Of a stretch of 64,000 nt of DNA, positions 3,470 to 63,162 are shown piece by piece. The position numbers were made by a program, and so were the translations under genes. Each line of letters opens with the position of its first letter. Position 1 is the stretch's first letter. This stretch comes from Eledone cirrhosa (Eukaryota). Below the pieces are notes generated by a model, which worked only from the letters and a program-made list of their open reading frames with translations, did not search any database and was not told the origin of the DNA. The stretch lies in assembly GCA_964016885.1 (NCBI GenBank), contig OZ024744.1, forward strand, positions 76,446,001-76,510,000, in the 5' to 3' direction.

Positions 3470-3470
3470 T

Positions 3471-3555
<85 letters not shown>

Positions 3556-3571
3556 GTTTGTGTGTGTGTGA

Positions 3572-3615
<44 letters not shown>

Positions 3616-3622
3616 GGGGGGG
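3470..3622. repeat. (GATA)n/(GT)n/(GA)n compound microsatellite
   Basis: Direct reading. Confidence 0.95.
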
Positions 3623-5304: not shown

Positions 5305-5625
5305 ACATACGGTCAGATATAATGTGATTTCGTCCCTCATTAGACTAGTGCTATGTTGAGAGAGAGAGGGGGATATTGATAGAGAGAGAGAGAGGAGGGA
5401 GATAGGTGGAGAGAGAATGGGGGGAGAGGAGGAGAGAGGGATAAGGGGAGAGGGAGAGAGAGGGGGGATTTGGAGTGGAGAGTGAGTGCGGGAGGGGAGG
5501 GAGAGAGAGAGAGGTGGGGAGGGGAGAGTAGGGAAGGGGGAGAGTGGGAATGAGAGAGATAGGGTAGGGATACGGTCAGATCTAATGTGATTTCGTCCCT
5601 CATTAGACTGATGCTACGTTGAGAG
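5305..5625 (-). repeat. Two ~55-bp direct repeats with a degenerate HHR-like core (CTAATGA-GGGAC-GAAA); probable Penelope pLTR remnant
   Basis: atacggtcagat.taatgtgatttcgtccctcattagact at ~5307 and ~5570. Confidence 0.5.
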
Positions 5626-13987: not shown

Positions 13988-14010
13988 TATATATATATGT
14001 GTGTGTGTGT

Positions 14011-16590: not shown

Positions 16591-16602
16591 TATATGTATA
16601 TA

Positions 16603-22045
<5,443 letters not shown>

Positions 22046-22046
22046 T

Positions 22047-22117
<71 letters not shown>

Positions 22118-22350
22118 ATTTCTTTATTTACCACAAGGGCGCACAAGAAAAGGGAACAATACAAAGACATGCCGGGGATTTTACATACAGTCGTGTAAAA
22201 ATATAGAACAAACAATTACAACAATCGAAATCCCCAATAGGGAGGAAGCACCACAAATGGGTTGTTTAATACCCCGTCGATAGAACAACCCTCAACTTCA
22301 GGAGCGTGTTGTGCAAGTGCTCCTTTCTTCCTTTTGCACTCCTCTTTAAC

Positions 22351-25300
22351 CTACAGGCTTATAAACAGAGAAGGCCCAATCACTCGGACCATTTTTGCAA
22401 CATTCACTCACCTTTCAGTCAATTTGCTGGGGTGCAGTGCCTCTCTCTCCACTCTGATTCTCCTTCTAAAGTGATACTTAAAGAAGGGAATCAATTGTTG
22501 TCCGGAGAGTAAGGCATCTGTTCTTAGTCCTCTCAATCTCGTCCACCATATAACTTCTTTCACCATAGCCACAGTACAGAGGAAAACCGCCTCTCTTTCG
22601 TTTCTGAAAGAGGCTGGCGGTTTGATCCTTACTATGGACTCGGCAGTCAATTGTATTTGTCCCATACGCGACAGCAGTTGTTCTGCATAGTTCCACAGGT
22701 CGGTTACGCCCGGGCAGTGTACAATTACGTGCAGGACGGTTTCAATGTCCTGCACGCATCTTGGACACGTCCTCTTGGAAGGATCCCTGCCGGGGATTTC
22801 TTATCTGTTGATCTTGTCGCGAACTGGTATAGCTCCTCGGTAGCACTTCCAGTCCAAGGACCTCTGGAAGTTGTCCATAGGTCCCGGGCGGAAAGTCCTA
22901 CCGAACAGACAGGTGAGCTCATCGTCTTCGACGCGCAGAGTCTCTCCGAGCATGTCGTCGTCCTTGTAACGTACAGTCCCTCTATAGAATGTCGAAGTGG
23001 AGTCTCCATTTATTGCTGTGCTCGCTTGCCAGAGGACTGTGAGCGCCTGAGCGCATTCAATATGCCAGGCGCCCATCGATTTCGGTCTTTTCTTGACCCA
23101 GGACTGCAGCTCCGTCAGCGAGACGAGCTGCGGGAAAGCATGTCTCACAAACGGTGCCCACACCGGTTGGAGGTCGGTGAGGAATACCTGGAAATATCGC
23201 AGCCTCAGCGCATGTTTGCGCATCATCAGCCACAGCATTCCCAGCCCTCGGTTGGAAGGGTGCTGACAGCAGACGGATCTCCTCACCACCGCAGCCTGCT
23301 TCTTCCACAGAAACTGGAAGAGGATGCATTCCATCTTGGCGAGGTGTTCACGGGGACAAGGTACGACACTCAAGCGGTAGTAGATGACGGACGCTATGAA
23401 AGGGTTCGCCACCTCCACTTGACCTTTCAAGGACAGTTTGCACTCTGCCCACTTCTGGGTGAGCGCAAACACCATGGCCGTGACTTCGTTCAAGTTTTTC
23501 TCCACCTGGAGGTCTAGACCGAACCAGACACCAAGCAATTTCACCGGTCCGTCCGTCCAGCGTCCAGCGACGCTGTCGGACGTCATCAATTTGCCTCTCC
23601 ACGCACCGAGTTTCAAATCGACAGACTTGTCCGGGTTTAGTTTTGCTGCCGTCAGCGTTTCGTATTCTTTCAGTAAGTTGCCGATCACCCCGATTTCCGA
23701 GGGGCTCGACACCATAAGCCGACGCCGCTTTGCGCAGTCCCGAATCTAGAGGGATGCCCTGCAACAGCTCCAATTTCCGCAGTAGTGGCTTTAGAGTCAA
23801 TACATACAGAATGGAGGAGAGAGGGCATCCCTGTCGAATGGAACGCGTGATCACGACCCTCGAGCAGATGCTGGTGTGTATCGCCTCGATCCAGCCTCTG
23901 AAAACGGGATCGAAACCGGCCGCCTTGAGAACCGCTTCCAAGTATCGATGGTCGACCCTATCGAATGCCTTAGACTGATACAAATTGATCAGAGCCTCAC
24001 CGAAGCCGGGTTTACTACCCACCCTCTCTATGATGTATCGCATGAGGTGGAGGTTGTCGTGTATGGACCTAGTCGGGATTGCACACGTTTGCGCTTTCCC
24101 TACCAGGTTCTCGACGACAAGCGCCAGCCTCGTCGCTAGCACCTTGGCCAAAATCTTTAACTCTGTGTTGAGCAGAGTTATGGGGCTGAAGTTGATAATT
24201 TCGTCCCCCTTGTTCTCGTCTTTCCTATCAGCGTTACGACGCCCATGCTTGCAGAACTGGGAATTCTCCCGTTCTGCTGCCAATTGCGGTAGACTGCTTC
24301 GAGGACACAAGAAAACAAGTCCGGCATGCCTATGTAAACTCATAGGGTAGACGATCTAGACCGGGTGACTTGCGCTTCCCGCAGCGGCCCAGGGCGTCCC
24401 GTATCTCAGTATCCGTGATCGGCGTCTGTGTTCGAGAGATGCGGCAGGCCGTCTAGGTATGAACTAAAGTCCATTGCCCCGTTTGGCTCACCGTCGTTCT
24501 GCTCAAACAATCGCGCAAAGTGCTGCTGAAAGGCCGCGCACATTTGCTTGGGGTCAAGTAGCACGCGTCCGTTTTGGTCTTTCAAAGACCGAATCGTGGA
24601 CTTGTTGCCACTTTTTGCCTCCGCCACTCGGGCCCAGCTAACAGCTTTCGCTCCTGCGTTTCCTAGAGCACGTGTTTGCTTCTGACCACGCAGCCTTCGT
24701 GTTTCGCATCGAAGAACTGGTCCAGTGCCGTTCTTGACGCTAACACTCTAGCCGCGTTGCCACTTCTAAGTCCCTCCTTTACCTTGGCTACTAGTTCTCT
24801 TTCTATTTTGTTTTTCTCTAAGGCTAACTCTCTGCTAAACTCTATCGATTCTACTCTAATTGCTTTTTTGAGAGAGTACCACCATTTATTGTTGACGATG
24901 GCTCCCGTTAACTGTTGCTTGACTAGTCTACTTATCCGTTCACCGTAAGCTTTACGTGCCGGCAACGACACGTTCAGCTTCCAGTGTCCGGGTCCCTGTC
25001 TATGTATTCTACCACGGTTGACTATGCAGACGACTAATTTGTGATCTGAATAGGCAACTATGTGCATTCGTGGACAGCTTAACATCTCCTTGTCCCTTTC
25101 TCTAATGAAGAACCTATCTAAATACGATCTAGATGTCCCGCTGCGGTTTGCTCACGTCCACTATGAAGCAGTCGGGAAATCCAGTCGATACATATCGGCC
25201 AGTTGGAATTGGCCGATTAAAGTGTTGAGGCTGTTGCAACCCCACCTCTACTGGGACATTATCCTACATAGTCCCATCGTGCATCTAGGATACCATTCCA

Positions 25301-25729
25301 GTCCCCCACTAAAAGCAAGGAGCGAGACGTTCCCAGAAAAGACTCTAGACGCTTAAATAAGTCTGACCGTGATTGCGATTGCCCGGTCGGGTCATAAACG
25401 GCCACCAGTCTGAAGGCTCCACCTCCAATACTGTTCACGTCTAGGACTACCAGTCTACCCTCCGGGTCCAAGTGTACTTGCTGTACTTCGACGTCCAGGT
25501 TCTTCCGAAATATGACAGTCACTCCCCCTCCACCTCACGGCTGACAGAGAGATGCGTAGATCTCAAAGTCATTGAAGATGGAGGTTAGATTCTGCCTGTT
25601 GTGGATCCTGGACTCGGTGATGGCTATTACATCTATACCGTTTGACCTAACGTCGTTTAAAAGTTGGCCCTGTTTCCAGGGCATCCCTAGGCCACGCACA
25701 TTCACGCTTCCAACTCGTAAGTCAGCCAT
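22351..25729 (-). pseudogene. Tx1 ORF2 (APE + RT), frameshifted
   Basis: MADLRVGSVNVRGLG start; YSDH; KAFDRVDH; RQGCPLS. Confidence 0.9.
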
Positions 25730-27495
25730 GTTGGTGGAGAAGAGTTGGCGAAAAGGACGAAAAGGTGCACTTACCTGTTCGTTTCCTGGAGATCGGGTTG
25801 TTCAATCTCCATTTCAGTTCTGGTCGGGGTGTTGGGTGGGGTGGGGAATCATTTTAATAGAACGCGGTTAATAGGTTTTTGACCGGAGTTGCCAACATCC
25901 TGCGAAAATTGTTCTTTCAATGTCTGATAGCTTTCTATCGAAACCCTTATTAGTTTTAGGTGTGGTTGTGAGTCTGCTTTTACAAAAGTTTTCCCCTCAG
26001 TTTCCACTTTGGGGTCCTGTGAGATGACCTCCATCATTTTTTTGTTGTTGGTGTTGATGTATGTATATTGTTGTTTTTGTTTTGGTTGTTGTTCGTCTGT
26101 GAGTTTTCTTATTTGTGTTTGGGGAGGTGTTGGTGTTTATTTGGTTAGTAGGGGAGGTTTGGTTGTGGTGTTGTTTGTGTTGTTCTATGTGTCTGTGGTT
26201 GTGTGTTGGTGTTGGTGATTGGAGTTTTGGGGGTTTTGTGGTGTGTCTTTTTTTTGTTTTTTAGATTTCCGAGGCTTTCCTTCTTCTTCACTTAAAGAAG
26301 GAGTAGCAGCCTCATCTGTCGAAAAATAATCATCGTCAGGAGTGTGGGGTAGAGGTATGTTGTGTGGTGGTGGTGTTTCGGTGTGTGTGTTTCTGGTAGT
26401 GTTTGATGGAGTGAGATAGGGTGGGGCTGTGTTCTTCAGGGGTGTTGTTTTTGTTTTTTCAGTTGTTGTTGTTTGAGTTGCTGTTTGTTTTTTGGTGTGT
26501 TTGCTTGTTTCGTGTGTTGTTGTTGTTGTGGTGGTGGTTGTTTTGGTGTTGGTAATAGTGTTTTCTTTTGTATTATTTTGGTTGAGCGTGTGTGTAAAGG
26601 GCAGGGGCCTTTAGGTGTGTGGTGCTATTGCAACGAAAGCAATGTGGTTTTCTTCGCTCCACCGAAATGTTTATGTGACTGTTGTTGTCGACCAGCCCTT
26701 TTTGTGGTATTTTGGAGATTCTTTCCGGGCTCATTTGCACCAGAATCTCCAAATTTGTACCAGACCAGGTGTGTTTGGTTGACTTTTTGATGGAGAGAAT
26801 AGTGTATTTTCTCTCCTCTAAAAATCCTGCCAATATCTACCAAATATTAATATTTGGTGGTATGTTTGACACTCTAATTTTTTGTGTCCTTTTTCCTAGG
26901 TATGTAGGGAAAAAGGTGTATTTTTGTGACAGTATTGGCGTCACTGAATATCTTTGTGCAAGGGCCTCGATTTTGAGGAGTACCGAAATACTCCCGTACC
27001 GTTTGGCCCTCTGCATAAAGTCAATGTCTGGCAATATCTCTTTCAAGGTTGCCTCAATTTCCCCTTACTGAGGAATTTTGGTCGTTTTGTTTCATTTGAA
27101 ACAGTTCTGGAGGTAATTGTCCTTTCCAGACGAATTTCTGGGGGTGAGTTTATCTTAAATCCACCGTTTTCACCGAAAGTGATAAACTCCTTTGCTTCAG
27201 AGAGCATCTGTTTCGCATTGGAGATATCGAGATCCGTGAATTCTTGTGTCTTGATGACTGTTTGCGCAAAGGTTTTTTTTTGTGTTGTTGTTGTTGTTGT
27301 TGTTGTGGTTGTCACGTTTTCCGTTTGTGGTTTTTTCAATGGTTTTATTTTCTGTTGTTCTTTCCGTCTGTTGTACTATGTGTGGTTCGATCTTGTTTTT
27401 ATTTTTGTTGTTCATATTGGTTTCCATGGTGACGCCAATACATGCGGAGTTAGAAGTAACGTTATTATTATGTGTGACTTGTATTATATTATATA

Positions 27496-27690
27496 AGGGC
27501 GGCGGATTGGCAGTATCGGTAGAGAATCGGGCACCATGCTTTGACGCATAGAGTTACGACCATTTCCATTCTGAGTTCAAACCCCGCCGAAGTCAACTTT
27601 GCCTTTCATCCTTACGGGGTCGATAAAATAAAGTACCAGTAATGTACTGAGTATTTGCTGGCCTTGTGCCAAAAGTAGAAACAATTATTA
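27496..27690 (+). mobile_element. Full-length tRNA-SINE within the Tx1 ORF1 region
   Basis: A-box TGGCAGTATCGG, B-box GAGTTCAAACC, tail gtgccaaaagtagaaacaattatta. Confidence 0.9.
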
Positions 27691-29499
27691 TTTGTGACTG
27701 TTTCTGTATAAGTTATTTTGTTGTTGTTGTGGTGGTGGTAGTTGTCAGGTTTTCCATTTGTAGTTGCGTCAATTGTTTTTTCTGTTGATTTTGGTGTGTG
27801 TTGTATACTGTGTGGTTCACTGTGCGATTCAATTTTGTTTGTGTTGTCTACTTCACTTTCGTTACACAAAACTTTGTTGTTAACTACATCGATACAGGCA
27901 AAATGTCTAGCAACGTTAAAGTCTATTTGTTCTTTTCTTTTTCCTTCTTCAACGTTCGCTCGCGTTCTTTGAATGCTTGGCATAGCTGACGGCAAAATAT
28001 TAAACATTTTTAAACAGTTTTCAAATTAATTTCAAATAAAATTTTCGCCCCCACAGGGGCGAACATTTTATTTCGGTGTGTGTGTTTGTGGTAGTGTTTG
28101 ATGTGTGGGATGGGGTGGGGCTGTATTCTTCAGGGGTGTTTTCTCTGTTTTTTTTTGTTGTTGGTTGAGTGGCTGTTTGTTTTGGTGTGGTTGCTCGTTT
28201 CGTCTGTGGTTGTACTTGTGGTGGTGGTGGTTGTTTTGGTGTTGGTAATAGTGTTTTTTTAATGATGTTATTGTGGTGTGTTTGTGAAGGACAAGAGGCT
28301 TTTAGGTGTGCTGTGCTACCACAGCGAAAGCAATGAAAGGTTCGTCCTTCTACCGAAATGTTTATTTTGTTGTTATCATTGATGACGATTCTTTCGGGTA
28401 TTTTGGAGATTCTCTCCGGCCTCATTTGCAACAGAATCTTCAAGTCAGTACCCGCCCACCTTTGTCGAATAGAATTTCGTATCGAAAGAATCATATCAGT
28501 TTCTGGCTCTACGAAGCCAGCTAAGATCCACCAGATGTTAATGTTTGGTGGTATATATATATATATTTTTTTTTGTGTCCTTTTTCCCATGTATGTTGGT
28601 GTCACAGAATGTTTTGGGGCGAGTGCCTCGCTTTTAAACAGTACGGAAACACTTCAGTACTGTTTTCCCCGTTGGAGAAATTCGGTATTTGCTAGAATTT
28701 CTTTCAAGGTATTTTCTATATCTCCTTGACTAACAAATATCGGCTTTCTCGTGGTATTCGATAGAGTCCTAAAGGTCACTGTCCTTCGAACTGTGTCTTC
28801 TTTTATTTCAAGGAGTGAGTTAATTCTAAACCCACTCTTCTCTTCGAAAGTTACAAATTTTCTCCCTTGCTGGAGCATATCTCTTGCATTGGAGATGTCA
28901 AGATTTATAAAATCTTGGTTTTTGTTCACTGTTTCGGCGAAAGACATTTTTATGTGTGGTGTTTCTGTTGTTGTTGTTGTTGTTATCTTTGTTAGCCTCG
29001 GTGTTGGAAATCTCAGTTCCTTGACGAGGTGAAACTTTATGTGTAGATGTATCTGTGTATTATGTGTATGTATGTTAATGGGTTTAATTCCTGTGTTTTC
29101 ATTTTTTTCTGCTTCGACGGTAGAAATTGTACAATCTTCAAGTTGCAATATTTGTTTCCCTTTGTTGACAGTCGTATCTATGGCAACGTCCATAGTAGCA
29201 GAAGCAGATATAACGTTAAAATCTACCTCTTTCTCTCTCTTTTCTCTGTCGACATTCTCCAGCGTTCTTGTCGTGTTATTCATGTTTTATAGTTGGCAAA
29301 ATTTGATATTTTAAAACAATTTTTAATTAAATGTTCGCCCCTAAAGGGGCGAAAAGTTGGATTACCACCCAGCTGACAATTCAGCTTGGGGGTTAATCTG
29401 CAAAATAATATGTTTTTTCAAACAATTTGTTCTGTTTTTGGTATATAAGTTTACAAAAAATCTTACCGGCGATGTTCCACACGTCAGGCAGAGAGAGAC

Positions 29500-30722: not shown

Positions 30723-31755
30723 ACGAGGGTGGGTTGAAGAGTTCATAGGCTGACTATGAAGGAGTGATGCTAGAGCTGTGAAATCGTGCATGCTTTAATG
30801 TCAACTCTTCTTATTAATAACTGCAACATTTATATCTTTCCAGGGACTATGTTGAAAAATAAACCTCATTTGGTCATTCCATGAGAGTATCTTGGTCAGC
30901 CTATGAAGGAGTGATGCTAGAGCTGTGAAATATTGCATGCATTAATTTCAACTCTTCTTATTAAACAACTGCGTTGTTTCTTTCCTGGGACTATGTAGAA
31001 AAATAAACCTTATTTAGTCATTCCATGAAAGTATTTTGGTTAGCCTATGAAGGAGTGATGCTAGAGCTGTGAAATATTGCATGCATTAATTTCAACTCTT
31101 CTTATTAAACAACTGCGTTGTTTCTTTCCTGGGACTATGTAGAAAAATAAACCTCATTTAGTCATTCCATGAAAGTATTTTGGTTAGCCTATGAAGTAGT
31201 GATGTTAGAACTGAAATCTTGCATGCAATAATTTCAACTCTTCTTATTAATAACTGTATTTATATCTTTCCAGGGACTTAGAAAAATAAACTTCATTTGG
31301 TTATTCCATGGGAGTATCTTGTTAGCGTAACTATGAAGGAGTGATGTTAGCGCTGTGAAATCTTGCATGCAATAATTTCAACTCTTCTTATTAATAACTG
31401 TATTTATATCTTTCCAGAGACTATGTAGAAAAATAAACATCATTTGGTCATTCCATGAGAGTATCTTGGTCAGCCTATGAAGTAAGAGCTGTTTTACTTA
31501 TTAAACAACTGCCTTTGTTTCTTTCCAGGTACTGTGTTTGTGAAAAATAAACCCCATTTAGTCATTCTATGAGAGTATTTTGGTCAGCCTATGAAGGAGT
31601 GATGCTAGAGCTGTGAAATGTTGCCTGTATTAATTTCAACTCTTCTTATTAATAATTACATTTTTTCTTTCCAGGGACTGTGTTAGTTGAAAAATATACT
31701 CTCATTCCATGAGAGTATCTTGGTCAGCATATGAAATGTTCAACCGACCCTCGTA
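30723..31755. mobile_element. Mariner-type MITE with ~7 internal tandem ~144-bp units
   Basis: TIRs acgagggtgggttgaagagttcataggctgac / gtcagcatatgaaatgttcaaccgaccctcgta; units start at ~30754, 30901, 31045, 31189, 31331, 31475 and 31589. Confidence 0.8.
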
Positions 31756-32406: not shown

Positions 32407-33478
<1,072 letters not shown>

Positions 33479-33562
33479 CCCACTCTACTACCCCAAGTAT
33501 CGAGGACTCTGGTGCGGTATGGTCCACCTTGTATCTTACCACAACTTCTTTGTTATATATAT

Positions 33563-35977
33563 AACTCACGCCTATTTTACCCGTTCCATAAGATTAATGA
33601 AAACCTAAACTACGTTAGCTTTTACTCTAACCACCCTAAAAATGTTAAAAAAGCTATAGTTAATAGTGTCAAGCAAAGAATATCTAGACTCTCGGCTAAT
33701 AAAAATATATTTGGAAACAAAGCACAATATTACAATGACGCTCTACACAAAGCTGGATACAATAATAAAATTAAATACATATATAAGAATAGTATACACA
33801 AACCTCCTAAAGTTTATTATAATATTAATAATAAACAAATTAACCAAAATAATAAATCAAATAAAAAACTAAAACTAGAAATATAATTTGGTATTCTCCT
33901 CCGATTTCATTAAGAATAAGACACCTTTAGCACACCAATTCTTTAAGGCTTTGGATAAATGTTTTCCTAAGTCCCATAAGTATCACTACATATTTAACAG
34001 ACATACAGTCAAGCTCTCTTACTCTACTACTATGAATATAGCACAAAATATTAATAGAATTAATAATAGGAATTTAAAATTAAACTCAACCCAAATAAAC
34101 TCAAATAACAATAACAATATAGTTAATAACATTACGTATAATAATAATAGCGAATGCATAAATAATAATACCGTTTCTCTAAACAACAATATTAGAAAAT
34201 GTAATTGCAGAAATAACATATGCCCTTTACAGAATAATTGCCTTGATAGAAATTTAGTATACAAATGCACCATAAAAACTAGATATAGATTATATAATTA
34301 TATAGGAGTTACTTCTACAAAATTTAAGGAGCGCTGGTATAATCATAAACATACTTTCAAACGATCGGACAAAAATTTCTCAACCTCACTATCACAATTA
34401 TTTTGGTCTTTAAAAGACTGTAACACTGACTATTCGGTCACTTGGCGAAGGATATCGAAAGCGCCAGTTTACCAAAATATGGCTCTCACAAGAATTTGTC
34501 ATCTCTGTATTGAAGAAATATTTCATATAATTACCAATCCTGGTAATATTATTAACAAAAAAAAAGGAAATATTTAATTTTTGTTTGCATCGATTCTCCA
34601 GAACATTTCATAATATTTACAATTTATAGAAAATACTACACATGGTCTGTATAAGTTGACTATGTACAATATATATTTTTGGTTGTCTTTAAAAGCTCTT
34701 AAATTTATACATAGAAATATTTACTATTATCAAATTTATACATAGAAATACTTATTGTTATCAATAAATATTCATCTTTTTATTATTATCTAGACCATAT
34801 TTACTATATGGTGCTCTGAAATCATATAGAAATTTTTATTTATATTATAATATAAATTATAATTAATTATTAGGTTCAACATTAGATCAAACAATATGTC
34901 TTTAAATAATTTGCATTCCTTAAATTACTAAATACTAGAGTTATCTTTCCCTTAATAAAAGTTTGTTTACAATTCACATATACGAGACATTCAAATTGTA
35001 CATAAATGTTTAAATTTATATATCTAACCTTATACAATAATAGATTATACATAATATTATACATGTTCTCTTAAAAATTATAATTATTTTCACATTCTTA
35101 AGGTATATATAGAAAATGCATATATATCATCGCTCATCATATCTTACGCTCTTTCATAATTATATATACTTAAATAAGATTTATATTCATGCATAACTAT
35201 GGACTAAATAATTTTTGGACTAAATAATTTTTATGGACTAAATCATTTTTTTTAATAACGATATACAATAATATTTTATACTACAATACTTATAATATTT
35301 ATAACTACACTCATCATAATATTAAAATATATGCGTAAAATATATCGAATCGTATATATAAATACAGGGTATCTTTCACATATTATATTGCTTTAATAAA
35401 TTAATAGTTCTCAATTTAATTCATTAATTTACAATTCTATAAATATTATAAATACTTCCATATTCTTAAAATATATTATAAAATTAAATAAATAAATATA
35501 ATTATTTCATTCTTTCTATACCCATGTAAATAGGTTTGGGTGTATATATATGCATATTTCTATAAATAAACCTAAATCAACTTTAAAGTTTTCTTTTCAA
35601 ATTTAATAGCAAACCCTTTTTAAAAAATAATTTAGATAAATATTTAAAATCTATCTAGCGTCTAAACTTAACGGTCCTTTTCAATTTTAACGTTATCCTC
35701 ATTAGTATATTCCCCCCGAGTTTTGAAAGATTATATTCACTATCCTCACTGAACTTATAACATGTAGTTCACATGAAGATATGTCACTATCTTTACACCA
35801 ATTATGGTATTTTATCTGACGAAAGCGTACTAAAATAAATATGGTTTGATAAAGATATTTTCCATTTATTAATAATATTGATATTAATTATACTCCGTTA
35901 AATTACCGTTGAGTGCTACTAAACTGTTATGAATTAACTTTGTTGAATAATCGACAAACCAAATAACTCATTGTTTA
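33563..35977 (+). mobile_element. 5'-truncated Naiad-like Penelope element (AT-rich)
   Basis: SNHP, IFNRHTVKLSYS, CNCR..CPL..C, LVYKC..YIGVT..FKERWYNH, CHLCIEE..I and CLH motifs; pLTR tail related to 13000-13260. Confidence 0.88.
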
Positions 35978-40711: not shown

Positions 40712-40740
<29 letters not shown>

Positions 40741-40746
<6 letters not shown>

Positions 40747-43192
40747 ATATTTGGGGAGGGTCATATTTGCGTAATATTGCCAGAATTAATAACAGAACAC
40801 ACTCACTGTTTGGTTGGTTTCCGCTTCTCGCTGTCTTTTATATATATATATCTGCGATCTAACTTACTCGGTCCTCAATGTTGCCATTGACTGACCGGCG
40901 GTCAAAAATAATACAGATACAATATAGACAAACACATATATATATAGTTTACATAAATCTTTCGTTGCACATCTGCATGATTTTGCTGTGAAAAGATGTG
41001 TGGAGATGATCATTGAGAGTGAGGTGGAGTTCTGCGACGTCGACACAGACGAACTAGGCCTCCTACTTAGACTTACCTACGACACTGACTACCTAGACAG
41101 CCATGACCTTAGATGTTTCTGCCCTAGTAGACCTATAAGAGGTAGACCCCCCACCATAACCTGAATGGCTAAAAAGACTCCCATAGGAAGGTGGATTGGG
41201 TGGACCAAAGCTATACGGACCCCCCAAAACACTGATCAGGTAAGAAAAATGGTCGCACATGCAATAGGGGCTAGTATCAAAACTACCCTAAAGGGCCACA
41301 TATTTAAGTTCAATGAGAAAATCTACACCCAAAATGAGGGAGCAGCCATCGGCGTCAGCATAGCTGGCGATGTTGCCAACCTTTTCATGGTATGGTGGGA
41401 AAGGAGACTTAAAGATCTCCTTAATGAAAGCTCCATAGACCTCATCATGTACTCTCGTTATGTAGACGATATCAATATAGTTATAAGAACACCCCCACTA
41501 GAGAGCACTAACAAGTTTGATTTAGAACGTAGCACGATGGAAAGCATCCAGCAGATAGCTAATTCCATACACCAGAGTATAACTGTAACTATAGACTTCC
41601 CTCCAAACACCCTAACAATAGACTACCTGTATTAGACACAGAACTCTGGATTAACACTATAGACGAGAGAGCCCAAATTCTCCACTCACACTATGCTAAA
41701 CCCATGGCCTCCAAATACCTGATACTCAAAAACTCAGCAATGTCCAGTAGTGCTAAGTTTAATATTCTGATCGCAGATTTGGTACGAGTGATGAAGAATG
41801 TGTCCAGCATGTGCGATCCAACAGAAATGGAAGGACACATCCAACACTTCATCAACCGCATGCAGTTCTCTGGCTACAACCAAAGAGACAGAGTCAGAGT
41901 ATACGAAGGAGCCATGGAAAAGTATAAGACCCTCATAGAACTGGACATGAAAGGAATTTGCCCACTATACAGGAGCAAATCATGGAATAGCTTAGATAGG
42001 GCTAGACATAAGATAGGGAAGGCCACATCATGGTACGACAACCAGAGATATCAGAGTGTCATGTTTGTGGACGCCACCCCTGGAGGGAAATTAGCTAACC
42101 AGTGTAGAAAGGCCCTGAGAAAGACCCACTTAAAAATAAAGGTGGTAGAAAAGCCAGGAACCACCATAAAATCCCTGATCAGCAAAACCTACCCTTTTAA
42201 GAAAACCCACTGTACCAATAGGAAATGTATCATATGTAAGGTGAACCCCCGGATAAACTGTAAAACTAGAAACGTAGTCTATAGCATAAGATGTACAGAG
42301 GGTACTTGCAGAAACACGACAACAACATACATAGGTGAGACAGCTCGTAGCATAGGTGAAAGGATAGACCAACACTGGGGGGAACTAAAAGGACGAAAAA
42401 ACGGGTCAGTACTATACGAACATGCTAGACAACATCATGACGGTAACATAGACAACATAGAAATTAGAATAATATCTAAACATAGGAATGACCCAGCAGA
42501 TAGGCAAATCAGAGAGGCCAGTGAAATAGAAATTAGAAGACCAAAGCTAAACAGAAAGAATGAGTGGAACAACAACAACACCCAAACAAACAACACTGAC
42601 CTAAGAGAAGTATAAATAAATAAGTAAATTAAATTAAATAAAATAAGATAAATAAATACATACACAAGCACATAAACACACACTAGTCACCCAGCAGACA
42701 CAACACGATACACACTAGTCACACATCACACATAACACTATACACACACGCAAACGCATGCGCAAAGAAGACAAAATAAAATAAGATAAACAAACAAGCA
42801 AATAAATAAATAAATATATAGACAGACTGAACAAAAAAAAAATGGCGTAGACATACAACACAACAGGAGGAACAATGAATATAACACCACTGACGATGTT
42901 GCAGATGTGCAACGAAAGATTTATGTAAACTATATATATATGTGTTTGTCTATATTGTATCTGTATTATTTTTGACCGCCGGTCAGTCAATGGCAACATT
43001 GAGGACCGAGTAAGTTAGATCGCAGATATATATATATAAAAGACAGCGAGAAGCGAAAACCAACCAAACAGTGAGTGTGTTCTGTTATTAATTCTGGCAA
43101 TATTACGCAAATATGACCCTCCCCAAATATAACAATATCTGTTTCGACACACGATTTCATATAAAAAACCTCGCAAAACTAATTCATCGCCG

Positions 43193-43193
<1 letters not shown>
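40741..43193 (+). mobile_element. 5'-truncated Penelope-like element with ~237-bp inverted pLTR at the 5' end
   Basis: ORFs 41165..41635 (YVDD) and 41704..42615 (GIY-YIG); 40741-40977 is the reverse complement of 42900-43136; HHR core CTGACGA..GAAA at 42890-42917. Confidence 0.93.
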
Positions 43194-43260
<67 letters not shown>

Positions 43261-43262
<2 letters not shown>

Positions 43263-44365
43263 TCAAACTGAACGGGTACACGACATCCACCACAAACCGT
43301 GCCAGAAAGAACAGAGGACACCACACCCGAGGCACTAACACTTGCTTCCTGAAGCTCCCACACTTCAGTGAAGAAACAACAACAGCCATCCGCAGAGCCA
43401 TCAGGCGAGAAGGTCTGGATATTCAACTGGCCCATTCGGGTCCTTCTTTGCGTGGACGGCTAGCTAAGAGACACTCCACCAGACATGACAACTGCTGCAG
43501 ACTAGCCAACTGCCCCATCAACGACACAGACCTATGCCACCAGGCTTACGTAGTTTACAGACTAGAGTGTGACAAATGCAACAACTTCTACGTAGGTAGC
43601 ACCACCAGACCACTCCACATAAGAATAAAAGAACACCTCAATACTAACGCTTCCTCATTTAAGAAACACCTAGTTAAATGCAAAAACACTGATAAAAACA
43701 TAACAGTTAGGATAGAAACTAAGGAAAGAAACCTCGGCAATCTTAGAATCAAGGAAGCACTCATTATAGATAGAACACATCCACCAATCAATAATAGACT
43801 AGAGCTCAACACCCAATTTATAACCTGATAGGGCCTCTAGCCCCACTTTACACACCCCACACACACGCACGCGCACACCTCCACTTATTCTCTCTCACAC
43901 ATACACACACAAAACCAGTTCTAACACCAGATAACACCTACCCCCCACTTTTACGATTAGACCTATCTTCCCACACTCACACACACACACCCACATACCT
44001 ACACCTTCATGCTTTCTCCCACACACATATACAGGCACGCATATAAAATTTAAAAAAACACAACAAAAACATAAACAAACCCCTCTTAAAGGGAGACTAC
44101 TCTTTACCCACCTAATTTTAATTCTTTGATATTAAAGTTAGAACTCTATACTATTTCCGGTCAGCATGGCTTCATTGGAAATTTAGACGCTGGTCTGAGA
44201 CTTTTACTTCCCTCCGAAGAAGAGATATTATCTCGAAAATTAAGGACATTTAAATAAATTCAAGGTGAAAGACGAATTCTCATCAATATCTTTCACTATT
44301 GCATTCTTTTTTTTTTCTATGTCCATATCTGCATTGTCTTGGCCTTATTACACATATTCTAACGT
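43261..44365 (+). mobile_element. 3' fragment of another Penelope-like family (GIY-YIG + pLTR)
   Basis: VVYRLECDKC..YVGSTTRPLHIRIKEH; HHR-like cct-CCGAAGA-a-gagata-t-tatctc-GAAA-atta-agg at 44211-44245. Confidence 0.88.
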
Positions 44366-44366
44366 T

Positions 44367-44455
<89 letters not shown>

Positions 44456-44464
<9 letters not shown>

Positions 44465-44928
44465 AAAGGTAACACACGAAAGAGATACAGTGCGCTATCA
44501 ATAAAACAGGGAAAAACCACCAGTGTATGGAATCTACGTGTAGCTGGACAGTCACTTTAAAATTCTCTTAGTGTTGTCTGAAATGTATAGACTTACACAC
44601 GCTGAAGAATCGAGGTTATTCCATTTCTGTCAACAACTTACTGGCGAAATAGATCTCTTTGGATTTGTACGTGTGTTGTATAGTTATAGAGGTATTTATT
44701 TACGCTTTAATTTATATTTTTAATTATCGTGTCTATAGTCTGCCTTTCATAGGTTATAGATTCCATACACTGGTAGTTTTTCCCTGTTTTATTGATAGCG
44801 CACTGTATCTCTCTCTAGTGTGTTACCTTTTCAACATATTGTATTTTAAAGAGCTCAGGATTTCCTCTCCTTTGAGCACATCATTTACAGGGAATAGCGA
44901 GAGTCTATGGCTCAATTAATTTATCGTG

Positions 44929-45296: not shown

Positions 45297-45312
45297 ATAT
45301 ATATATATATAT

Positions 45313-45502
45313 AACGAAGGAAATGTGGTAAGGAACCAGGTGGACCGTAACGCACCAAAGTACTGAATATTTAGGGTAGTAGAGTGGGTAATAGGAACCA
45401 GTAAGACCCCGACGGCTGAGCTCAAGCCGTTTCGACGGCTAATTCTGGATCAGAATTAGCCGTCGAAACGGCTTGAGCTCAGCCGACGGGGTCTTACTGG
45501 TT

Positions 45503-45507
<5 letters not shown>
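45313..45507. mobile_element. Hairpin mini-element, copy 1 (57-bp arms)
   Basis: Arms 45391-45447 / 45451-45507; relatives at 54818, 62860 and 33476. Confidence 0.88.
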
Positions 45508-45586
<79 letters not shown>

Positions 45587-45600
45587 TATATGTACATATA

Positions 45601-45642
<42 letters not shown>

Positions 45643-45648
45643 TATATA

Positions 45649-45742
<94 letters not shown>

Positions 45743-45766
45743 TGTGTATATATATATATATATATG

Positions 45767-47638
45767 GAAAGTTATATTTAAATTGTTGGGTTACAACTAG
45801 TAAATATTTATAACTGATATAAAAGCACTCAACAAGTATTTAGAATTTAATGACCAACTATGGACCAGAGCAGATAGAGATAGCAATTTTGACATTACTA
45901 TCGGATCATCCGACTCAGCTCAGGTAACTGACCTTGTGGGCTTATTTTTAATCAATTCGCTACATAGGAAAATACCTGGTACTACCGGAGGTTTATATAG
46001 AGATGACATGCTTTTACTTATTGATAATAATAACTCTGAACTAAATAGAAAAAGAAAACAAATTACACAATTTTTTAATTACTTTAATCTAAAAATAGAA
46101 ATTGAGAACAACCATAGAATAGTCAATTTCCTAGATATAACATTAAATCTCAACACATGTCTTCACTATCCATTTCACAAGTTGAATGAAAACTTAAACT
46201 ATGTCAGCTTTAACTCTAACCACCCCAGATCTGTCAAAAACACTATAGTAAACTCTGTTCAAAAACGTATCTCTAGAATCTCGTCTAATAGAAAGATTTT
46301 CGACGAAAAAGCCCAATACTACAATGAAGCGTTAGCTAGAGCAGGATATAGTGATAGGATTATGTACATAGATAATGATAGACAAACTAAACAAAATAAC
46401 AACTATTTTAATTACGACCACAATCTTAACAACTATAATAGAAAGCATTACAATAATTCCAAAAGCCAAAAAAGAAATAGAACTAGGAACATAATATGGT
46501 TTGCCCCCCTTTCTCACTAAACATTAAAACCCACATCGCTAAACTATTATTTAAAGCTCTTGATAATCGCTTCCCTAGAACACATAGGTATCACTCAATT
46601 TTCAATAGACATACTATAAAATTAACCTACTCATCCACCAAAAATTTAGCACAAAATATTAATAGAATAAATAATAGGAACTTAAAACCTAGCGATAATA
46701 GCATAAATAATATACAAGTTAACAAATGTAACTGTAGAGATAGATCTAAATGTCCGTTAAATAACAACTGCTTAGTTAAAAATATAATATACAACTGTAA
46801 TGTTAAAACGGACTCTAATTCTTTTAACTACGTCGGTTCCACATCGACGGAATTTAAACTTCGCTATAATAACCACAAGAATTCTTTCACAGATCCAAGC
46901 AAATAAATCTTCAACAGCACTATCAGGCGTACTTTGGCAACTTAGGCAAGATAACGTTAGATATTCGACGGCTTGGAATATAGTCTCAAGAGGGATTCCT
47001 TTTAATTCATCCTCTTAGACATGTGACCTCTGCGCGGAGGAGATATTCTTTATACTAAAATTTAAAAATTCCCTTAATCTACGGACAAATTTATTCAGTT
47101 GCTGCAAACATAGATTGAACTCAACTTTTAAATATAAATTTAAATTTAAAATGTAGTATATTTAGTTTTGTAATTATTTGGGAAACTAGCCGATAAATCT
47201 TTCGATTTCTTCTTTTTATTCTTCTTTTTATTTTTATTTTAATTTTTATTTTAAACATTCTTCATGAAAAATTAAACTACCCTAAAAGTTGATGCTCCAA
47301 ATATATCGAATAAACGTTACACTAGATAAACTTCTATATTAAATATAAGAACATATGTAGACCAAATGGGCATCCTAAACTTTTGAAATGATTTCTGCTA
47401 GACGCGATTTGGTAAATAATTTTTAGCTTTATCTGTTTTCGACTCTAATGCTTATAATGAACTTGACAATATATTGTCAATTAATTTTGAAGGGTTGATC
47501 TTTGTGGTCGATTTGCGTGGCATATTATGTTTTTATTTTTATTATTTTAATATTTTTTAATAATATTTTTTAATATTTTTAATATTTTCATTTTTAATAT
47601 GTAATATTTTTTAGTTTTCTATTTTATTTATTTGTTTA

Positions 47639-49818: not shown

Positions 49819-49819
<1 letters not shown>
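49584..49819 (-). mobile_element. Tx1 3'UTR-only insertion beside (GATA)n
   Basis: Homologous to 2378-2630. Confidence 0.85.
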
Positions 49820-49911
<92 letters not shown>

Positions 49912-49944
49912 CATTTATATATATGTATATATATATATATATAT

Positions 49945-51240
49945 ATTGGAATAAATGCTCTGAAATAGCGATATATATGTGAATATAGACATAGAATATT
50001 CGAAAATATTCTGTATGTTTATAATAAACATTTTGAAGACCTAATCGCTATAGAATAGAATACGTCACGTATTACAATTAGATTCTCGATAAAAGCAAGG
50101 GAAGTAATCTACGCGTTTCATTCTTATTAGAAATCTTCAGGACTACATATCCAGTGTTTTTATCGAGAATGACACAGCTAGAGACTTATAGAATACTTAG
50201 CCGTGTACAGGAACTGGTTTGAAAGTGCGGTTGCCGGTCCGGCAGAAATTAGAAATTGGAATAAATGCTCTGAAATAGCGATATATATGTGAATATAGAC
50301 ATAGAATATTCGAAAATATTCTGTATGTTTATAATAAACATTTTGAAGACCTAATCGCTATAGAATAGAATACGTCACGTATTACAATTAGATTCTCGAT
50401 AAAAGCAAGGGAAGTAATCTACGCGTTTCATTCTTATTAGAAATCTTCAGGACTACATATCCAGTGCTTTTATCGAGAATGACACAGCTAGAGACTTATA
50501 GAATACTTAGCCGTGTACAGGAACTGGTTTGAAAGAGCGGTTGCCGGTCCGGCAGAAATTAGAAATTGGAATAAATGCTCTGAAATAGCGATATATATGT
50601 GAATATAGACATAGAATATTCGAAAATATTCTGTATGTTTATAATAAACATTTTGAAGACCTAATCGCTATAGAATAGAATACGTCACGTATTACAATTA
50701 GATTCTCGATAAAAGCAAGGGAAGTAATCTACGCGTTTCATTCTTATTAGAAATCTTCAGGACTACATATCCAGTGCTTTTATCGAGAATGACACAGCTA
50801 GAGACTTATAGAATACTTAGCCGTGTACAGGAACTGGTTTGAAAGAGCGGTTGCCGGTCCGGCAGAAATTAGAAATTGGAATAAATGCTCTGAAATAGCG
50901 ATATATATGTGAATATAGACATAGAATATTCGAAAATATTCTGTATGTTTATAATAAACATTTTGAAGACCTAATCGCTATAGAATAGAATACGTCACGT
51001 ATTACAATTCCTGTACACGGCTAAGTATTCTATAAGTCTCTAGCTGTGTCATTCTCGATAAAAGCACTGGATATGTAGTCCTGAAGATTTCTAATAAGAA
51101 TGAAACGCGTAGATTACTTCCCTTGCTTTTATCGAGAATCTAATTGTAATACGTGACGTATTCTATTCTATAGCGATTAGGTCTTCAAAATGTTTATTAT
51201 AAACATACAGAATATTTTCGAATATTCTATGTCTATATTC
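49945..51240 (-). mobile_element. Retrozyme-like array: 3.4 near-identical 310-bp HHR units plus 232-bp inverted segment
   Basis: Units start at 49945, 50255, 50565 and 50875; inversion 51009-51240; flanked by (TA)n; no ORF. Confidence 0.88.
51075..51117 (+). ncRNA. Type I hammerhead ribozyme (minus-strand copies at 50104-50146, 50414-50456, 50724-50766)
   Basis: gtagtc-CTGAAGA-t-ttct-aata-agaa-t-GAAAC-gcGTA-gattac; stem I extended by attctcgataaaagca (51051-51066) / tgcttttatcgagaat (51124-51139). Confidence 0.9.
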
Positions 51241-51252
51241 ATATATATATAT

Positions 51253-51530
51253 ATATTAATAAAAGGAATTACAACTTTGTCTGATTTACTCGTTTTATTT
51301 ACAATCCTTTAAAATTTATAATGGTATTAGAATGAAATATTATGGTAGAATATTAAATGTTAAGTGTTAATTGAACAAGTATTTTCATGCTTTCGCAATC
51401 TTCAGGTTCATAATGTGTGGTGACAGTCAAGTTTGCAATTTTCAACTGACAGTTGAAAATCAGACAAAGTTGGAATTCCTTTTATTAATATAATCTTCTC
51501 TACACAATCATTCACACCCGTGTATATTTA
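51253..51530. mobile_element. Fold-back element (arms ~51253-51287 / 51457-51492) with minimal HHR-like core on the minus strand
   Basis: CTGAAGA-ttgc-GAAA near 51390-51405. Confidence 0.65.
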
Positions 51531-53418: not shown

Positions 53419-53491
<73 letters not shown>

Positions 53492-53873
53492 GAGAAGAAA
53501 GAAGAATACTGCGTTGTTTGCACATGGGTTACATATGATAAAAATAGTCCTTCGTCAGTGATTTTCAAACCATCATTGATGAATGTATATATAGTATATT
53601 TGGCAATATGTCATATGTTTAATTAAAAACATTGCCTCAGCATGGCCTCTGCCGGATGGCTGGAACAAGTAAAAGAGTAAAAGAGTAACACCATTCGCTA
53701 TTAGTCTTAAAGCAGTGACTATGTCACTTACTTATTCTCGGCAAAAGCAAAGAAGAATGATCGACAGTCCTATTTCTGGCTCGTTAGCGTTTATTAAGAC
53801 CACTCACTCCTTTGTTTCTGCCGAGAGTTAAAGAAGCTGGCTTCTTAGAGAATTCCAGTAATATCTAAGAGTT

Positions 53874-54800: not shown

Positions 54801-54817
54801 TCTATATATATATATAT

Positions 54818-55022
54818 AACGAAGGAAATGTGGTAAGGAACCAGGTGGACCATAACGCACCAAAGTACTCAATACCTAGGGTAGTAGAGTGGGTAATAGG
54901 AACGAATAAGACCCTGACGGCTGAGCTGAAGCCGTTTCGACGGCTAATTCTGGACTCAGAATTAGCCGTTCAGAATTAGCCGTCGAAACGGCTTGAGCTC
55001 AGCCGTCGGGGTCCTACTCGTT

Positions 55023-55027
<5 letters not shown>
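54818..55027. mobile_element. Hairpin mini-element, copy 2
   Basis: Same family as 45313-45507. Confidence 0.88.
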
Positions 55028-55079
<52 letters not shown>

Positions 55080-55220
55080 CACAGTATATATATTCAGTAT
55101 ATATATATACGATATTAAACAAATGGAAACTATATTTATAAAACCCTATTTATTTCATTATACATATTTCGGGGATACCATATTAAAAATATGGCATGCA
55201 ACAATTTTAAATAAAACCTT

Positions 55221-55269
<49 letters not shown>

Positions 55270-55291
55270 TGATTATATATATATATGTATG

Positions 55292-55419
<128 letters not shown>

Positions 55420-59168: not shown

Positions 59169-61250
59169 GTAATGGCTTGCATTACCCGTATAGAAAGCCG
59201 AATGATACGCTTAATTACATAAGTAAGCATTCTAACCATCCTGCCAGCATAACCAAGAACCTGGTAAGAAACGTTTCTTTGAGGCTTTCCCGTCTATCTA
59301 CTAACGAGCATATTTTCAACGTCCATTCCATATATTACAATGAAGCTCTTGCGTGGAGTGGATTTGTCGATAAGGTAGCATATACTGAGTAAGAGAATAG
59401 ACCTAGAAGAAATAGATCCCGACGCATTATATGGTATAACCCACCATATAATATGGAGGTGGCCACACCATTAGCTAAGATCTTTCTTTCCCTTATTACG
59501 AAGCATTTTTCCCCTACACATAAATATAGTAAAATTTTTAATAGAAATACAATTAAAATTTCTTACTCTACGCCTCCTAACCTTGCACATAACATCACAG
59601 CTTCAAATTTAGCTAAACTACCTAGCCGTAGGAACACGTGTAACCCTGTAGTTAGTACTAACTGTAATTGTAGGAATCGGGTTGACTGCGCCTATCCGAG
59701 AAATGCCTCTCTAATAACATTGTCTACAAATGTAAGGTTGAAACACCCACGTCTCGTAGGCCTACATAGGGTTAACCGCCAATAGATTCAAGCAGCGTCT
59801 TTACATGCATACCCATTCTTTTCGTAACCCTTTAATAAGGAATATGACGTCACTTTCAGCTTATATCTAGAGTCTAAAAGACAACCACACCAAATATAAG
59901 TTACACTGGGAGATCCTAGCTAAGGCTAGATCGTATAACGGAAATAAATAACCATGTGCCCTCTGCGCCGCTGAGGCCCTGCAAATACTCTACGCCAAAG
60001 ACCACATCTTAAACAAAAAATCTGAGGCAATTTCGGCTTGTAAACATAAATTGCACAAAACTTTCCTGTATTACAGCCCAACATTATACCCTAACGGATA
60101 GTACGAACTATACGCGGATATTTTACGTCTTGATGTGGTAGTTAAGTATATGTTATGTTTATACCATTACTTATATGTATAGGTAAGTATATATTACCTG
60201 TATGTTTTGTGAAGGTACGTATACTTTCTCGTATGTATATTTGATTGTATATGTTATGGCGTATATATTATATATTCTGGTACATATGTTTTTGGTTAAT
60301 GTGTATGCGTGAGTTTTGCGTCTGTGTGAGTATGCGGGTTCGTATGTATGTAGGGTGTGTGTATATGTGTACTTTGTGTTTTGGTTGACGTACGTCTCCG
60401 AACATATGTGTATTTACATGTAGGTATGTGTGTGCGCTTGTTATATACGTATTTATTTATTTATATACGTTTATTTAATTATATGTATACACGCACACAC
60501 ACACACACACACACATACACACATATATATATATTTTTTTAAATATATATTTTTATGTGTATACATTCGTATGTGTATACATTCGTATGCGTGTGGGTAC
60601 AGGTGTTGCGTGGGTTCTGTATGTGCGTGCGGGTTTTTTTTTGGTTTTTCTTCGTGTACGTGCGTGTATTTGTATACCTATGGCGTGTTTTCGCGTATGC
60701 TTGTGTATGTACATGGATGTATATGGATGCGTGTATGTATTTATTTAATTTCAATTACCTCTGTATTTTATTTACTTTATTCTTAACTCTGAAGCTGAGA
60801 ATCATTCGGTTTCCTAGTTAGAATTTTAGTCTACGACTTCAGTTATACCATATACGTGGTTTTGTCTTTGCGTGCAATTGTTCTCCACGCTCCACATAAT
60901 GACGTATTAACTTCGTTTTTTTTTCGTTCATTGCCAGAGAACGTCTCTATGAAGCACCTAATAGAATATTAGTCTACGACTTCTTTTATACCATAAACGT
61001 GGTTTTGTCTTTGCGTGTAATTGTTTTTCACCGCTCCAAATAATGACGTATTATATTCGTTTTTTCCCGTTCTTTGCCAGGGAACGTTTCCACAAACAAA
61101 GTATCGTTTTCGTGTCTTCCTCCGGTTGCAACGTTTTTTGAAATATTTACTTCTGTGTTCACAGATTGACTTTGTTAGTTTCAGAAGATCCCGTTAAGGG
61201 TGAAAGCAGCGATTCTTTGCTTAAACTTTAATCTGTTATTTTAATAAATA

Positions 61251-62516: not shown

Positions 62517-62807
62517 AATAATTGTTTCTACTTTTTGGCACAAGGCCAGCAATTACCCAGTACATTAGAAAGAAATAATGAAAGAAAGAAAGACAGAGAG
62601 AGAGAGAGAGAGGAACCAGAACATCCATATCTGTAATTGAGACGTTTATAAGTCTATTGGTGATTGAAAAAGATTTGCTGGAATCATGTCATCATAGAGG
62701 CTATGACCTCAGGCTGGTAACAGTGAAGAAATAAATAAAGTAAATGAGTGCAACTCTCTCACTCTCATATACGTATACATGTTTATGTGCGTGTGTATGT
62801 ATATATA

Positions 62808-62859
<52 letters not shown>

Positions 62860-62863
<4 letters not shown>

Positions 62864-63037
62864 AACAAGTAAGACCCCGGCGGCTGAGCTCAAGCCGTTT
62901 CGACGAATTAGCCGTCGAAACGGCTTGAGCTCAGCCGTCGGGGTCTTACTTGTTCCTATTACCCACTCTACTACCCTAAGTATTGAGTACTTTGGTACGT
63001 TATGGTTCACCTGGTTCCTTACCACATTTCCTTCGTT
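62860..63037. mobile_element. Hairpin mini-element, copy 3 (opposite orientation)
   Basis: Same family as 45313-45507. Confidence 0.88.
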
Positions 63038-63162
63038 ATATTCCTGTAGAAGCTCCTTCTATAAAATAAAAAAGCTCCTTCTATAAAATAAAAAATGTTT
63101 ACTCTGCCATGTATTGAGTACCTTACTTACTGTGGTTATCCCCGACTCAACCCGGGACCTAC

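Follow-up and report, generated by a model that had tools for sequence, protein, structure and literature searches.

How does a DNA unit that codes for no protein come to lie in a genome as a tandem array with a second arm of opposite sense? This question is raised by an insertion in a stretch of Eledone cirrhosa DNA (contig OZ024744.1, positions 76,446,001 to 76,510,000; the whole stretch of 64,000 nucleotides is called the window, and coordinates without a contig are those of the window). Tandem-repeat analysis of the window gave an array at 49945-51009 with a period of 310, 3.4 copies and 99% matches. This array is the long arm of the insertion (49945..51009, minus strand). Its RNA sense runs from right to left, and its outer (3') end is at monomer position 165, the tailed end type (monomer positions are numbered from the predicted cut site in RNA sense). 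The 35 nt at 49945..49979 (minus strand, monomer positions 131-165) form a tail that is present at one end of the insertion only, and it matches the one-sided tail of 30-40 bp of Penelope elements, as far as the accessible text of the sources describes it (PMC11167929; PMC3846280; 10.1101/2021.04.23.441226). The short opposed arm (51010..51241, plus strand) is 232 bp long and comprises monomer positions 207-310 followed by 1-130, with the outer end at 130 being of the tail-less type. The two arms have the same haplotype and share two letters of microhomology at their junction (51008..51009); if these are counted, the opposed arm is 234 bp long. The RNA-sense 3' ends of both arms border (TA)n. 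The left flank (49912..49944) is rich in (TA)n and is preceded by (ATAG)n at 49819-49911, while the right flank (51242..51256) is (TA)n. Since about 15 letters of pure TA in the right flank are identical to the left flank, a target duplication is unreadable at this insertion.

Three of the four units are identical, and the unit at 49945-50254 deviates at two positions (50157 and 50226). With a length of 310 bp and a GC content of 33.9%, the unit is inside the low-GC range of 150-450 bp of metazoan non-LTR retrozymes. The unit has no protein-coding frame, the longest stop-free frame of the repeat being 59 aa. No frame with reverse transcriptase (RT) and GIY-YIG domains is present in the unit, and none is attached to it except at one locus (L034, see below). 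An LTR-like layout was absent from all 131 stretches analysed. A preliminary description of the window had claimed 3.4 almost identical 310-bp units in (TA)n that lack an ORF, followed by a 232-bp inversion that turns both 3' ends toward (TA)n, and both claims were borne out. The insertion is a member of a very young non-LTR retrozyme family and carries Penelope-type insertion marks.

A motif scan identified type I hammerhead motifs on the minus strand at 50724..50766 (stem I to stem I; core 50760-50730, predicted cut after 50730), 50414..50456 (core 50450-50420, predicted cut after 50420), and 50104..50146 (core 50140-50110, predicted cut after 50110). The opposed arm contains a fourth one on the plus strand at 51075..51117 (core 51081-51111, predicted cut after 51111). 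The core has all of its 12 conserved letters, there are six pairs in stem I, and cleavage is predicted after GUA. Stem III is the palindrome ACGCGU, as had been described. Stem II has 4 bp, and a U-U replaces the usual closing G-C. Rfam gave no match in the window at the gathering score; below the threshold there was a weak match to Hammerhead_HH9 (17 bits vs 52, E 0.15). Thus, the type I core that the preliminary description called canonical is complete in its letters, but stem II and the Rfam score depart from the canonical form.

Folding supported the 16-bp distal extension of stem I (around motif 2 at 50392..50480, minus strand, where 50480-50465 pairs with 50407-50392) and the further hairpins that had been claimed. 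The extension had been ascribed to each full unit, but the change at 50157 disrupts one of its pairs in one unit. The unit with this change outfolds 100 of 100 shuffles (z -2.86). In the predicted lowest-energy fold stem III is open. An 8-bp hairpin with a UUCG loop (50303..50322, minus strand) lies just upstream of the tail-less end site and is a candidate part of the binding site of the reverse transcriptase. The modelled unit is likely to have ribozyme activity. According to the accessible text of the two sources, the axolotl hammerhead HHR_Amex2, which is also U-U-closed and has a helix III of 2 bp, reaches 22% cleavage within one hour and is more efficient as a dimer (PMC7229834), and eight of nine Xenopus retrozyme dimers were without cleavage in vitro (10.64898/2026.07.22.740005).

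The preliminary description had considered a single locus as a possible outcome. However, exact matches to a 29-letter pattern across the cut site numbered 14,634 over the 3.0 Gb of the genome (control 0), which by arithmetic corresponds to about 4.5 Mb of sequence. A similarity search with the 310 bases gave 147 matches, an undercount since common words are skipped. We analysed a sample of 131 stretches, namely the window, 34 loci from the similarity search, the first 16 loci from the pattern list, and 80 from lists of ends. They contained 110 two-armed insertions (53 of which had been picked as pairs) and 27 single arms; arms shorter than 60 nt or more than 6% divergent from the window unit are excluded from these counts. 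The (TA)n arrays with variable starts and inversions that had been anticipated are thus dispersed over the genome, and their inner ends are spread over the unit. Substitutions found in a single unit amount to 4.2e-4 per base (150 in 359,774), an upper bound that includes sequencing error, and therefore the family is very young.

The outer (RNA 3') ends cluster at monomer positions 126-139 and 154-170, mostly at 130 or 139 and at 165 or 167, and (TA)n borders 231 of 236 of them. The two end types are nearly equally common in the genome, with at least 1,233 exact matches for one and at least 1,253 for the other. They are also paired. In two sets picked without regard to ends, the two-armed insertions that could be classified, 30 in number, all combine a tailed with a tail-less end; five others were cut off or odd. 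Similarly, among 89 + 100 listed ends in the first 218 Mb of contig C1, the 63 divergent pairs within 20 kb were all mixed and none was like-with-like. The window insertion follows this rule, with 165 on the left and 130 on the right.

The tail-less (~130) and tailed (~165) end sites are 35 nt apart. Since a one-sided tail of 35 nt corresponds to the 30-40 bp signature of Penelope insertions, it points to Penelope machinery. The Penelope protein of the anole cuts and extends both target strands, and the two internal RNA sites from which it starts are the limits of the tail (PMC11167929). At 7 of 104 loci, those where the target is not pure TA (L032, L067, L070, L072, L079, L108, and L167), target duplications were legible; at 11-58 nt they are longer than 4 bp, as in metazoan non-LTR retrozymes. 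In the contigs of a public run, (TA)n follows both end types (loose ends at 50266 and 50281); some contigs of the public runs also hold pieces of a neighbouring Penelope frame, so that they are uninformative on expression. The neighbouring Penelope-like elements had been put forward as the mobiliser of the array. The one-sided tail and the paired ends support a mobiliser of Penelope type, but they single out no particular family.

The opposed arm had been described as a Penelope-type inverted 5' end. The opposed arm is real, but it is better read as a second arm from a second fixed site, since of 102 insertions, 86 have two arms that are both longer than one unit. In 94 of the 102, each arm extends across the cut site. 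Either arm can be the longer, and in 59 of the 102 it is the tailed one. Inner ends are evenly distributed over the unit (chi-square p 0.16), and the two inner ends of one insertion are mutually independent (KS p 0.70). These features fit two cDNAs that were separately primed and then joined. Only 5 of 220 inner ends are within 5 nt of the cut site, with 7 expected. At the junctions of the arms, 1-5 letters are shared in 65 of the 110 two-armed insertions.

Two other origins of the second arm were ruled out. Self-priming by fold-back conflicts with the independence of the inner ends, of which 8/110 pairs lie within 10 nt (~7 expected), and with the tailed arm being the longer one in 59 of 102 insertions. 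L1-type 5' inversion of one linear cDNA is ruled out by the 94 of 102 insertions in which both arms cross the cut site. As a separate observation, short templated inserts at the inner junctions of L068, L110, L130, and L063 recur at a small palindrome at about monomer positions 211-218, in line with end joining with snap-back synthesis.

The template was examined through the variants of the units. Both arms have the same haplotype in 90 of 92 insertions, while shuffled arms agreed in 11.4 on average and in 22 at most (2,000 shuffles). Variants private to one insertion, that is, private among 107 sampled of at least ~1,250 insertions, are present in both arms in all 19 testable cases. There are 47 haplotypes among the 107 well-covered insertions, and 36 of these were found in one insertion only. 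Variants present in some but not all units of an insertion numbered only 16, and a change that is fixed in every unit suggests a one-unit bottleneck. Passages over the cut site are exact in 1,148 of 1,150 cases. Given one haplotype per insertion, seamless junctions and cDNAs that do not stop at the cut, a covalently closed monomer is the simplest template.

Several loci do not follow this pattern and speak against the circular reading. L048 (G000:C28:81388500-81398499) has G in place of A at the cleavage site in all units, in one arm as in the other, so that its triplet is predicted to be uncuttable; this would be in line with editing on a closed circle and also with a template that is not cut. 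The arms of L129 and L146 differ in haplotype, and L052 has a mirrored second haplotype beside the junction. Furthermore, the ribozyme of the anole Penelope is dispensable for insertion in vitro, where uncut RNA is the main template (PMC11167929). L059 and L108 are long arrays in which a rare change is repeated at intervals, suggesting some later duplication.

Within the family, variants are commonest at the free core position 7, in loop 2 and in stem II. A depletion of changes in the catalytic core was not demonstrable, with 1 of 37 fixed changes there vs 1.4 expected. A>G accounts for 12 of 37 fixed changes but for 12 of 150 changes confined to a single unit (Fisher p 3e-4). Conflict with a tree is greatest at A218G and A20G, then at C294T, A259G, and A276G. 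RNA editing behind the A>G excess is suggestive only: tolerance of G-U pairs would give a similar pattern, and among fixed changes neither 12 A>G against 7 T>C (p 0.09) nor 10 of 12 A>G changes at a paired A (p 0.08) is significant. An error signature of reverse transcriptase in the single-unit changes (57 vs 34, p 0.017) was rejected, as it disappeared when two hot spots were left out (47 vs 34, p 0.12).

We therefore propose, with a probability of roughly two in three, that this young, high-copy hammerhead retrozyme is written into (TA)n by a Penelope-like RT that starts from both ends of the target and copies one circular monomer. The dual priming can be read directly from the insertion marks, while the circular template is what we infer from the haplotypes and junctions. 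The cycle would begin with transcription of a tandem array. The hammerheads would then cut the transcript into monomers, probably as dimers held by the palindromic stem III, as the anatomy of the motif and the axolotl precedent suggest. A host ligase may close the monomer, in line with the accessible text of PMC7229834. A Penelope-like protein would next cut both strands of (TA)n and start cDNA about 130 and about 165 nt past the cut, one at each target end; both end sites are observed, as is their pairing one to one, and the enzyme is the putative part. Both cDNAs would be copied from the same template, and the number of turns that they make round it would vary. The single haplotype per insertion and the seamless junctions were found directly, and the circle would account for them. 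Finally, the two cDNAs would be fused back to back, each at a position unrelated to that of the other and in many cases through 1-5 shared letters, and a variable target duplication would be left. This last step corresponds to what the junctions display, and for the duplication to what is seen where the target is not pure TA.

A further-reaching version is possible but doubtful. It holds that two Penelope RTs roll round one 310-nt circle, that A-to-I edits are written into all daughter units, and that the enzyme is recruited by the fold of the RNA and not through descent from a pLTR. If this is true, the family would provide genomic evidence for rolling-circle target-primed retrotransposition, and RNA editing would drive heritable change of an element. 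Moreover, the inversion and the one-sided tail of Penelope insertions would be explained by dual priming.

Penelope dual priming might also have used an uncut linear multimer transcribed from a parent array, with the ribozyme as a passenger and the arrays as uniform as their parents. The preference of the anole Penelope for uncut RNA in vitro (PMC11167929) is in line with this, the autonomous Penelope copies in this genome are also tandem, and L048 is without a cleavable triplet in all units. In addition, L052 with its mirrored 5' haplotype would be explained if one mixed linear RNA had been copied twice. However, such parents would have had to supply 47 haplotypes of fixed changes, each through a one-unit bottleneck, while single-unit changes are at 4.2e-4 per base and only 16 variants occur in some but not all units. 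The helices of the ribozyme are also kept in comparison with a sister family (see below), and we regard an uncut template as unlikely. Cut linear monomers, with an RT that jumps from the end of one to the next or to the same one, would require no covalent circle. They would pass through a monomer bottleneck if the same molecule is reused or if one source locus supplies the monomers, and after cleavage the 16-bp stem would keep the two ends of the monomer next to each other. Nevertheless, marks at the cut site would be expected from jumps and run-off ends, but 1,148 of 1,150 junctions are exact and cDNAs show no stopping at the cut (5/220, 7 expected), so that this origin is quite unlikely. Later expansion of single Penelope-type insertions by unequal crossover or conversion has been proposed for vertebrate retrozymes, according to the accessible text of 10.64898/2026.07.22.740005, and the rare changes repeated at intervals in L059 and L108 agree with it. 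As the main route it is close to refuted and thus improbable here, because 86 of 102 insertions have multimers in both of their opposed arms, the arms carry one haplotype and are only 4.2e-4 diverged, and inner ends fall anywhere in the unit.

The unit might instead be the mere pLTR of an ORF-bearing Penelope element that was amplified in truncated form, an outcome that the preliminary description had also considered. In the accessible text of 10.64898/2026.07.22.740005, 24 of 57 Xenopus families match known elements, and 21 of 22 matched ones are Penelope-like. At L034 an intact frame of 1,104 codons leads in the same sense into a retrozyme arm, and at L075 the pLTR of another family does so. 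But these two joins point to different families, and the inner ends of the 110 two-armed insertions meet the other arm, not an ORF. A same-sense frame was found at 1 of 26 single-arm flanks (L034), and 20 other copies of its family have their own, unrelated pLTR. These observations make a pLTR origin very improbable. Mirror arrays could also be artefacts of assembly or library preparation, such as fold-back chimeras or collapsed repeats. Long, near-perfect inverted repeats are hard to assemble, and L114 has a duplicated copy of one insertion. Since the arms end at two different fixed sites, start independently and have target duplications, and since both end types are joined to (TA)n in the contigs of a public run, artefacts are hardly credible as an explanation. 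Copying of a closed monomer from both target ends thus remains the reading that we prefer.

Which Penelope-like element might provide the enzyme? Three young autonomous Penelope-like families have long open frames and end in (TA)n at two sites. The first is represented in the window by a 3' part (43133-44367). Its intact frames have about 900 codons with RT and GIY-YIG domains, its tail is 44 nt long, and among 150 scored copies, about 120 show 100% identity over 130 codons. Near 44215 there is a hammerhead-like motif that is atypical. Of 12 fetched insertions, 8 combined the two end types and the other four were unclassifiable. The tailed end of this family is 164 nt past the putative cut site, compared with 165 in the retrozyme, which we do not take as proof. 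The second family has a two-armed insertion in the window (40739-43200, 3' part 41165-43200), about 1,217 codons, a tail of about 60 nt and a hammerhead near 42891; 150 of 150 scored copies are identical over 130 codons. An older relative of this family lies at 13978-16576. The third family (about 1,278 codons), with end sites 60 nt apart, came from L034.

At L034 (G000:C22:10729300-10739299), the intact 1,104-codon frame of the third family (857-5605) is joined in the same sense and without TA to the retrozyme, which there consists of a 47-nt inverted piece and a 4.7-unit arm. This join may be a template switch or the product of a later deletion. The pLTR of a different family that runs into the retrozyme arm at L075 is the other such join. 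In sequence, the unit was no closer to the pLTRs of two of the young families than shuffles were (p 0.12-0.74), and blastn gave no link to the third young family or to an older Penelope-like family. The tail lengths do not match either, with 44, ~60, and 60 nt in the autonomous families vs 35 in the unit.

The window contains other elements of this kind. Hammerhead motifs are also present at 13055+, 12936-, 48546+, 51773-, and 44602+. Four of them are in AT-rich terminal repeats of Penelope type with an AU palindrome in stem III, and those at 13055 and 12936 are an opposed pair. The fifth has a long stem III and is inside a small element with opposed ends (44456-44839). A short element with opposed arms is repeatedly set in (TA)n (45298-45783, 54803-55358, 62767-63041, 33474-33563); it is possibly another passenger of Penelope enzymes.

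A 26-letter pattern taken from a loose end of the public contigs had no match in the genome. With a shorter, degenerate pattern from the same source, what came up was an older sister family (about 319 bp) and not an autonomous partner. The sister family is 68-80% identical to the 310-bp family and has the same end sites; there were 27 exact pattern matches, 20 of which were examined. Double-sided changes have kept three of its helices intact: the 16-bp stem, the tetraloop hairpin, whose loop is GCAA instead of UUCG, and the hairpin next to it. The helix counts are tallies of cells and not of events, amounting to about 8, 2, and 1 such changes, and they use patterns written from the same sister copies (9, 19, and 12 of 20 matched). 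Stem II of the sister family is G-C-closed, and stem III is a palindrome of its own. Core positions 3 and 8 are often U and A, a swap that is compensatory in the hammerhead core. In the window, 53480-53870 (minus strand) is a decayed relative of the 310/319-bp families, and in an alignment its part at 53580-53633 corresponds to the two hairpins that precede the tail-less end.

Metazoan non-LTR retrozymes and their link to Penelope elements are already published, while we did not find the two-armed signature in the literature searched. Neither a retrozyme family of this kind nor two-armed retrozyme insertions came up among titles and abstracts, mostly of papers outside subscription. The retrozymes of PMC7229834 share tandem low-GC units of 150-450 bp with a type I hammerhead in each, no ORF and long target duplications, and HHR_Amex2 of the axolotl shares the U-U at the base of helix II and the 2-bp helix III. 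In contrast, the accessible text of that paper mentions no inversion or fixed end sites, and it reports expression, cleavage and circles, whereas the 310-bp family is known from sequence alone. In its Discussion, the authors suggest that templates are circular, that tandem cDNA is produced, and that the mobiliser is likely to be a Penelope element. Vertebrate retrozymes (Li, Clavereau, Pollet 2026, 10.64898/2026.07.22.740005) also co-occur with and depend on Penelope-like elements, and they are dispersed as monomers to multimers. The accessible text of that study covers 35 species with no mollusc, ascribes tandems to later unequal crossover, and bases the Penelope link on co-occurrence and pLTR similarity, with no mention of a tail or an inversion. 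In the 310-bp family, by comparison, the link is the footprint of insertion, no parent pLTR was found, and the tandems look as if they were made at insertion.

Penelope-like elements with an endonuclease share the head-to-head inverted arm, the tail at one end and the AT-rich or microsatellite target, as described in the accessible parts of PMC3846280, 10.1101/2021.04.23.441226, and PMC11167929. They also share two internal priming sites downstream of the hammerhead and the extension of both target strands (PMC11167929). Unlike them, the retrozyme has no RT/GIY-YIG frame of its own, and its arms are many turns of a 310-nt unit. The inversion of the rotifer Penelope elements is explained by self-priming in the accessible text of PMC3846280, whereas the arms of the 310-bp family with their independent inner ends fit two primings. 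The dimer-type hammerheads of Penelope pLTRs share a short palindromic helix III that is thought to need a second copy, according to the accessible text of PMC4209133. The 310-bp unit differs from them in its 6-bp helix I with the 16-bp extension and its 4-bp helix II, which is the canonical layout of retrozymes. It is also without their conserved G10.1-C11.1 pair, which is present in the sister family.

For animal retrozymes, the route back into the genome (circle, Penelope enzyme, and tandem cDNA) had been proposed but not shown in the literature that we searched, part of which was accessible as abstracts. The present family is young enough for the footprint to be readable in more than 1,000 places, with two priming sites, one haplotype per event and seamless turns. 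It supplies an RNA of 310 nt, two start sites that are exactly defined, and three candidate enzymes with intact frames, so that the model is testable with the published in vitro Penelope assay. It also bears on the inverted copy and the one-sided tail of Penelope insertions. If the model holds, an RT that writes small circles into (TA)n would be of interest as a tool.

Other repeats were noted in the window. Several decayed non-LTR retrotransposons, with a zinc-knuckle first frame and endonuclease/RT frames in translations read by eye, are at 954-3658 and 16406-29286 (minus strand). A diverged 144-bp tandem repeat (at least five copies, 88%) lies at 30754-31735, and a 143-bp doublet at 60819-61090 looks unrelated to it. 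A second, older retrozyme-like element at 32429-33372 has a unit of about 430 bp and opposed arms that are 87-94% alike. Its hammerhead (32678-32648, minus strand) has a U-U-closed stem II and a palindromic stem III, and hairpins and a TA-like stretch precede its end, as in the 310-bp family.
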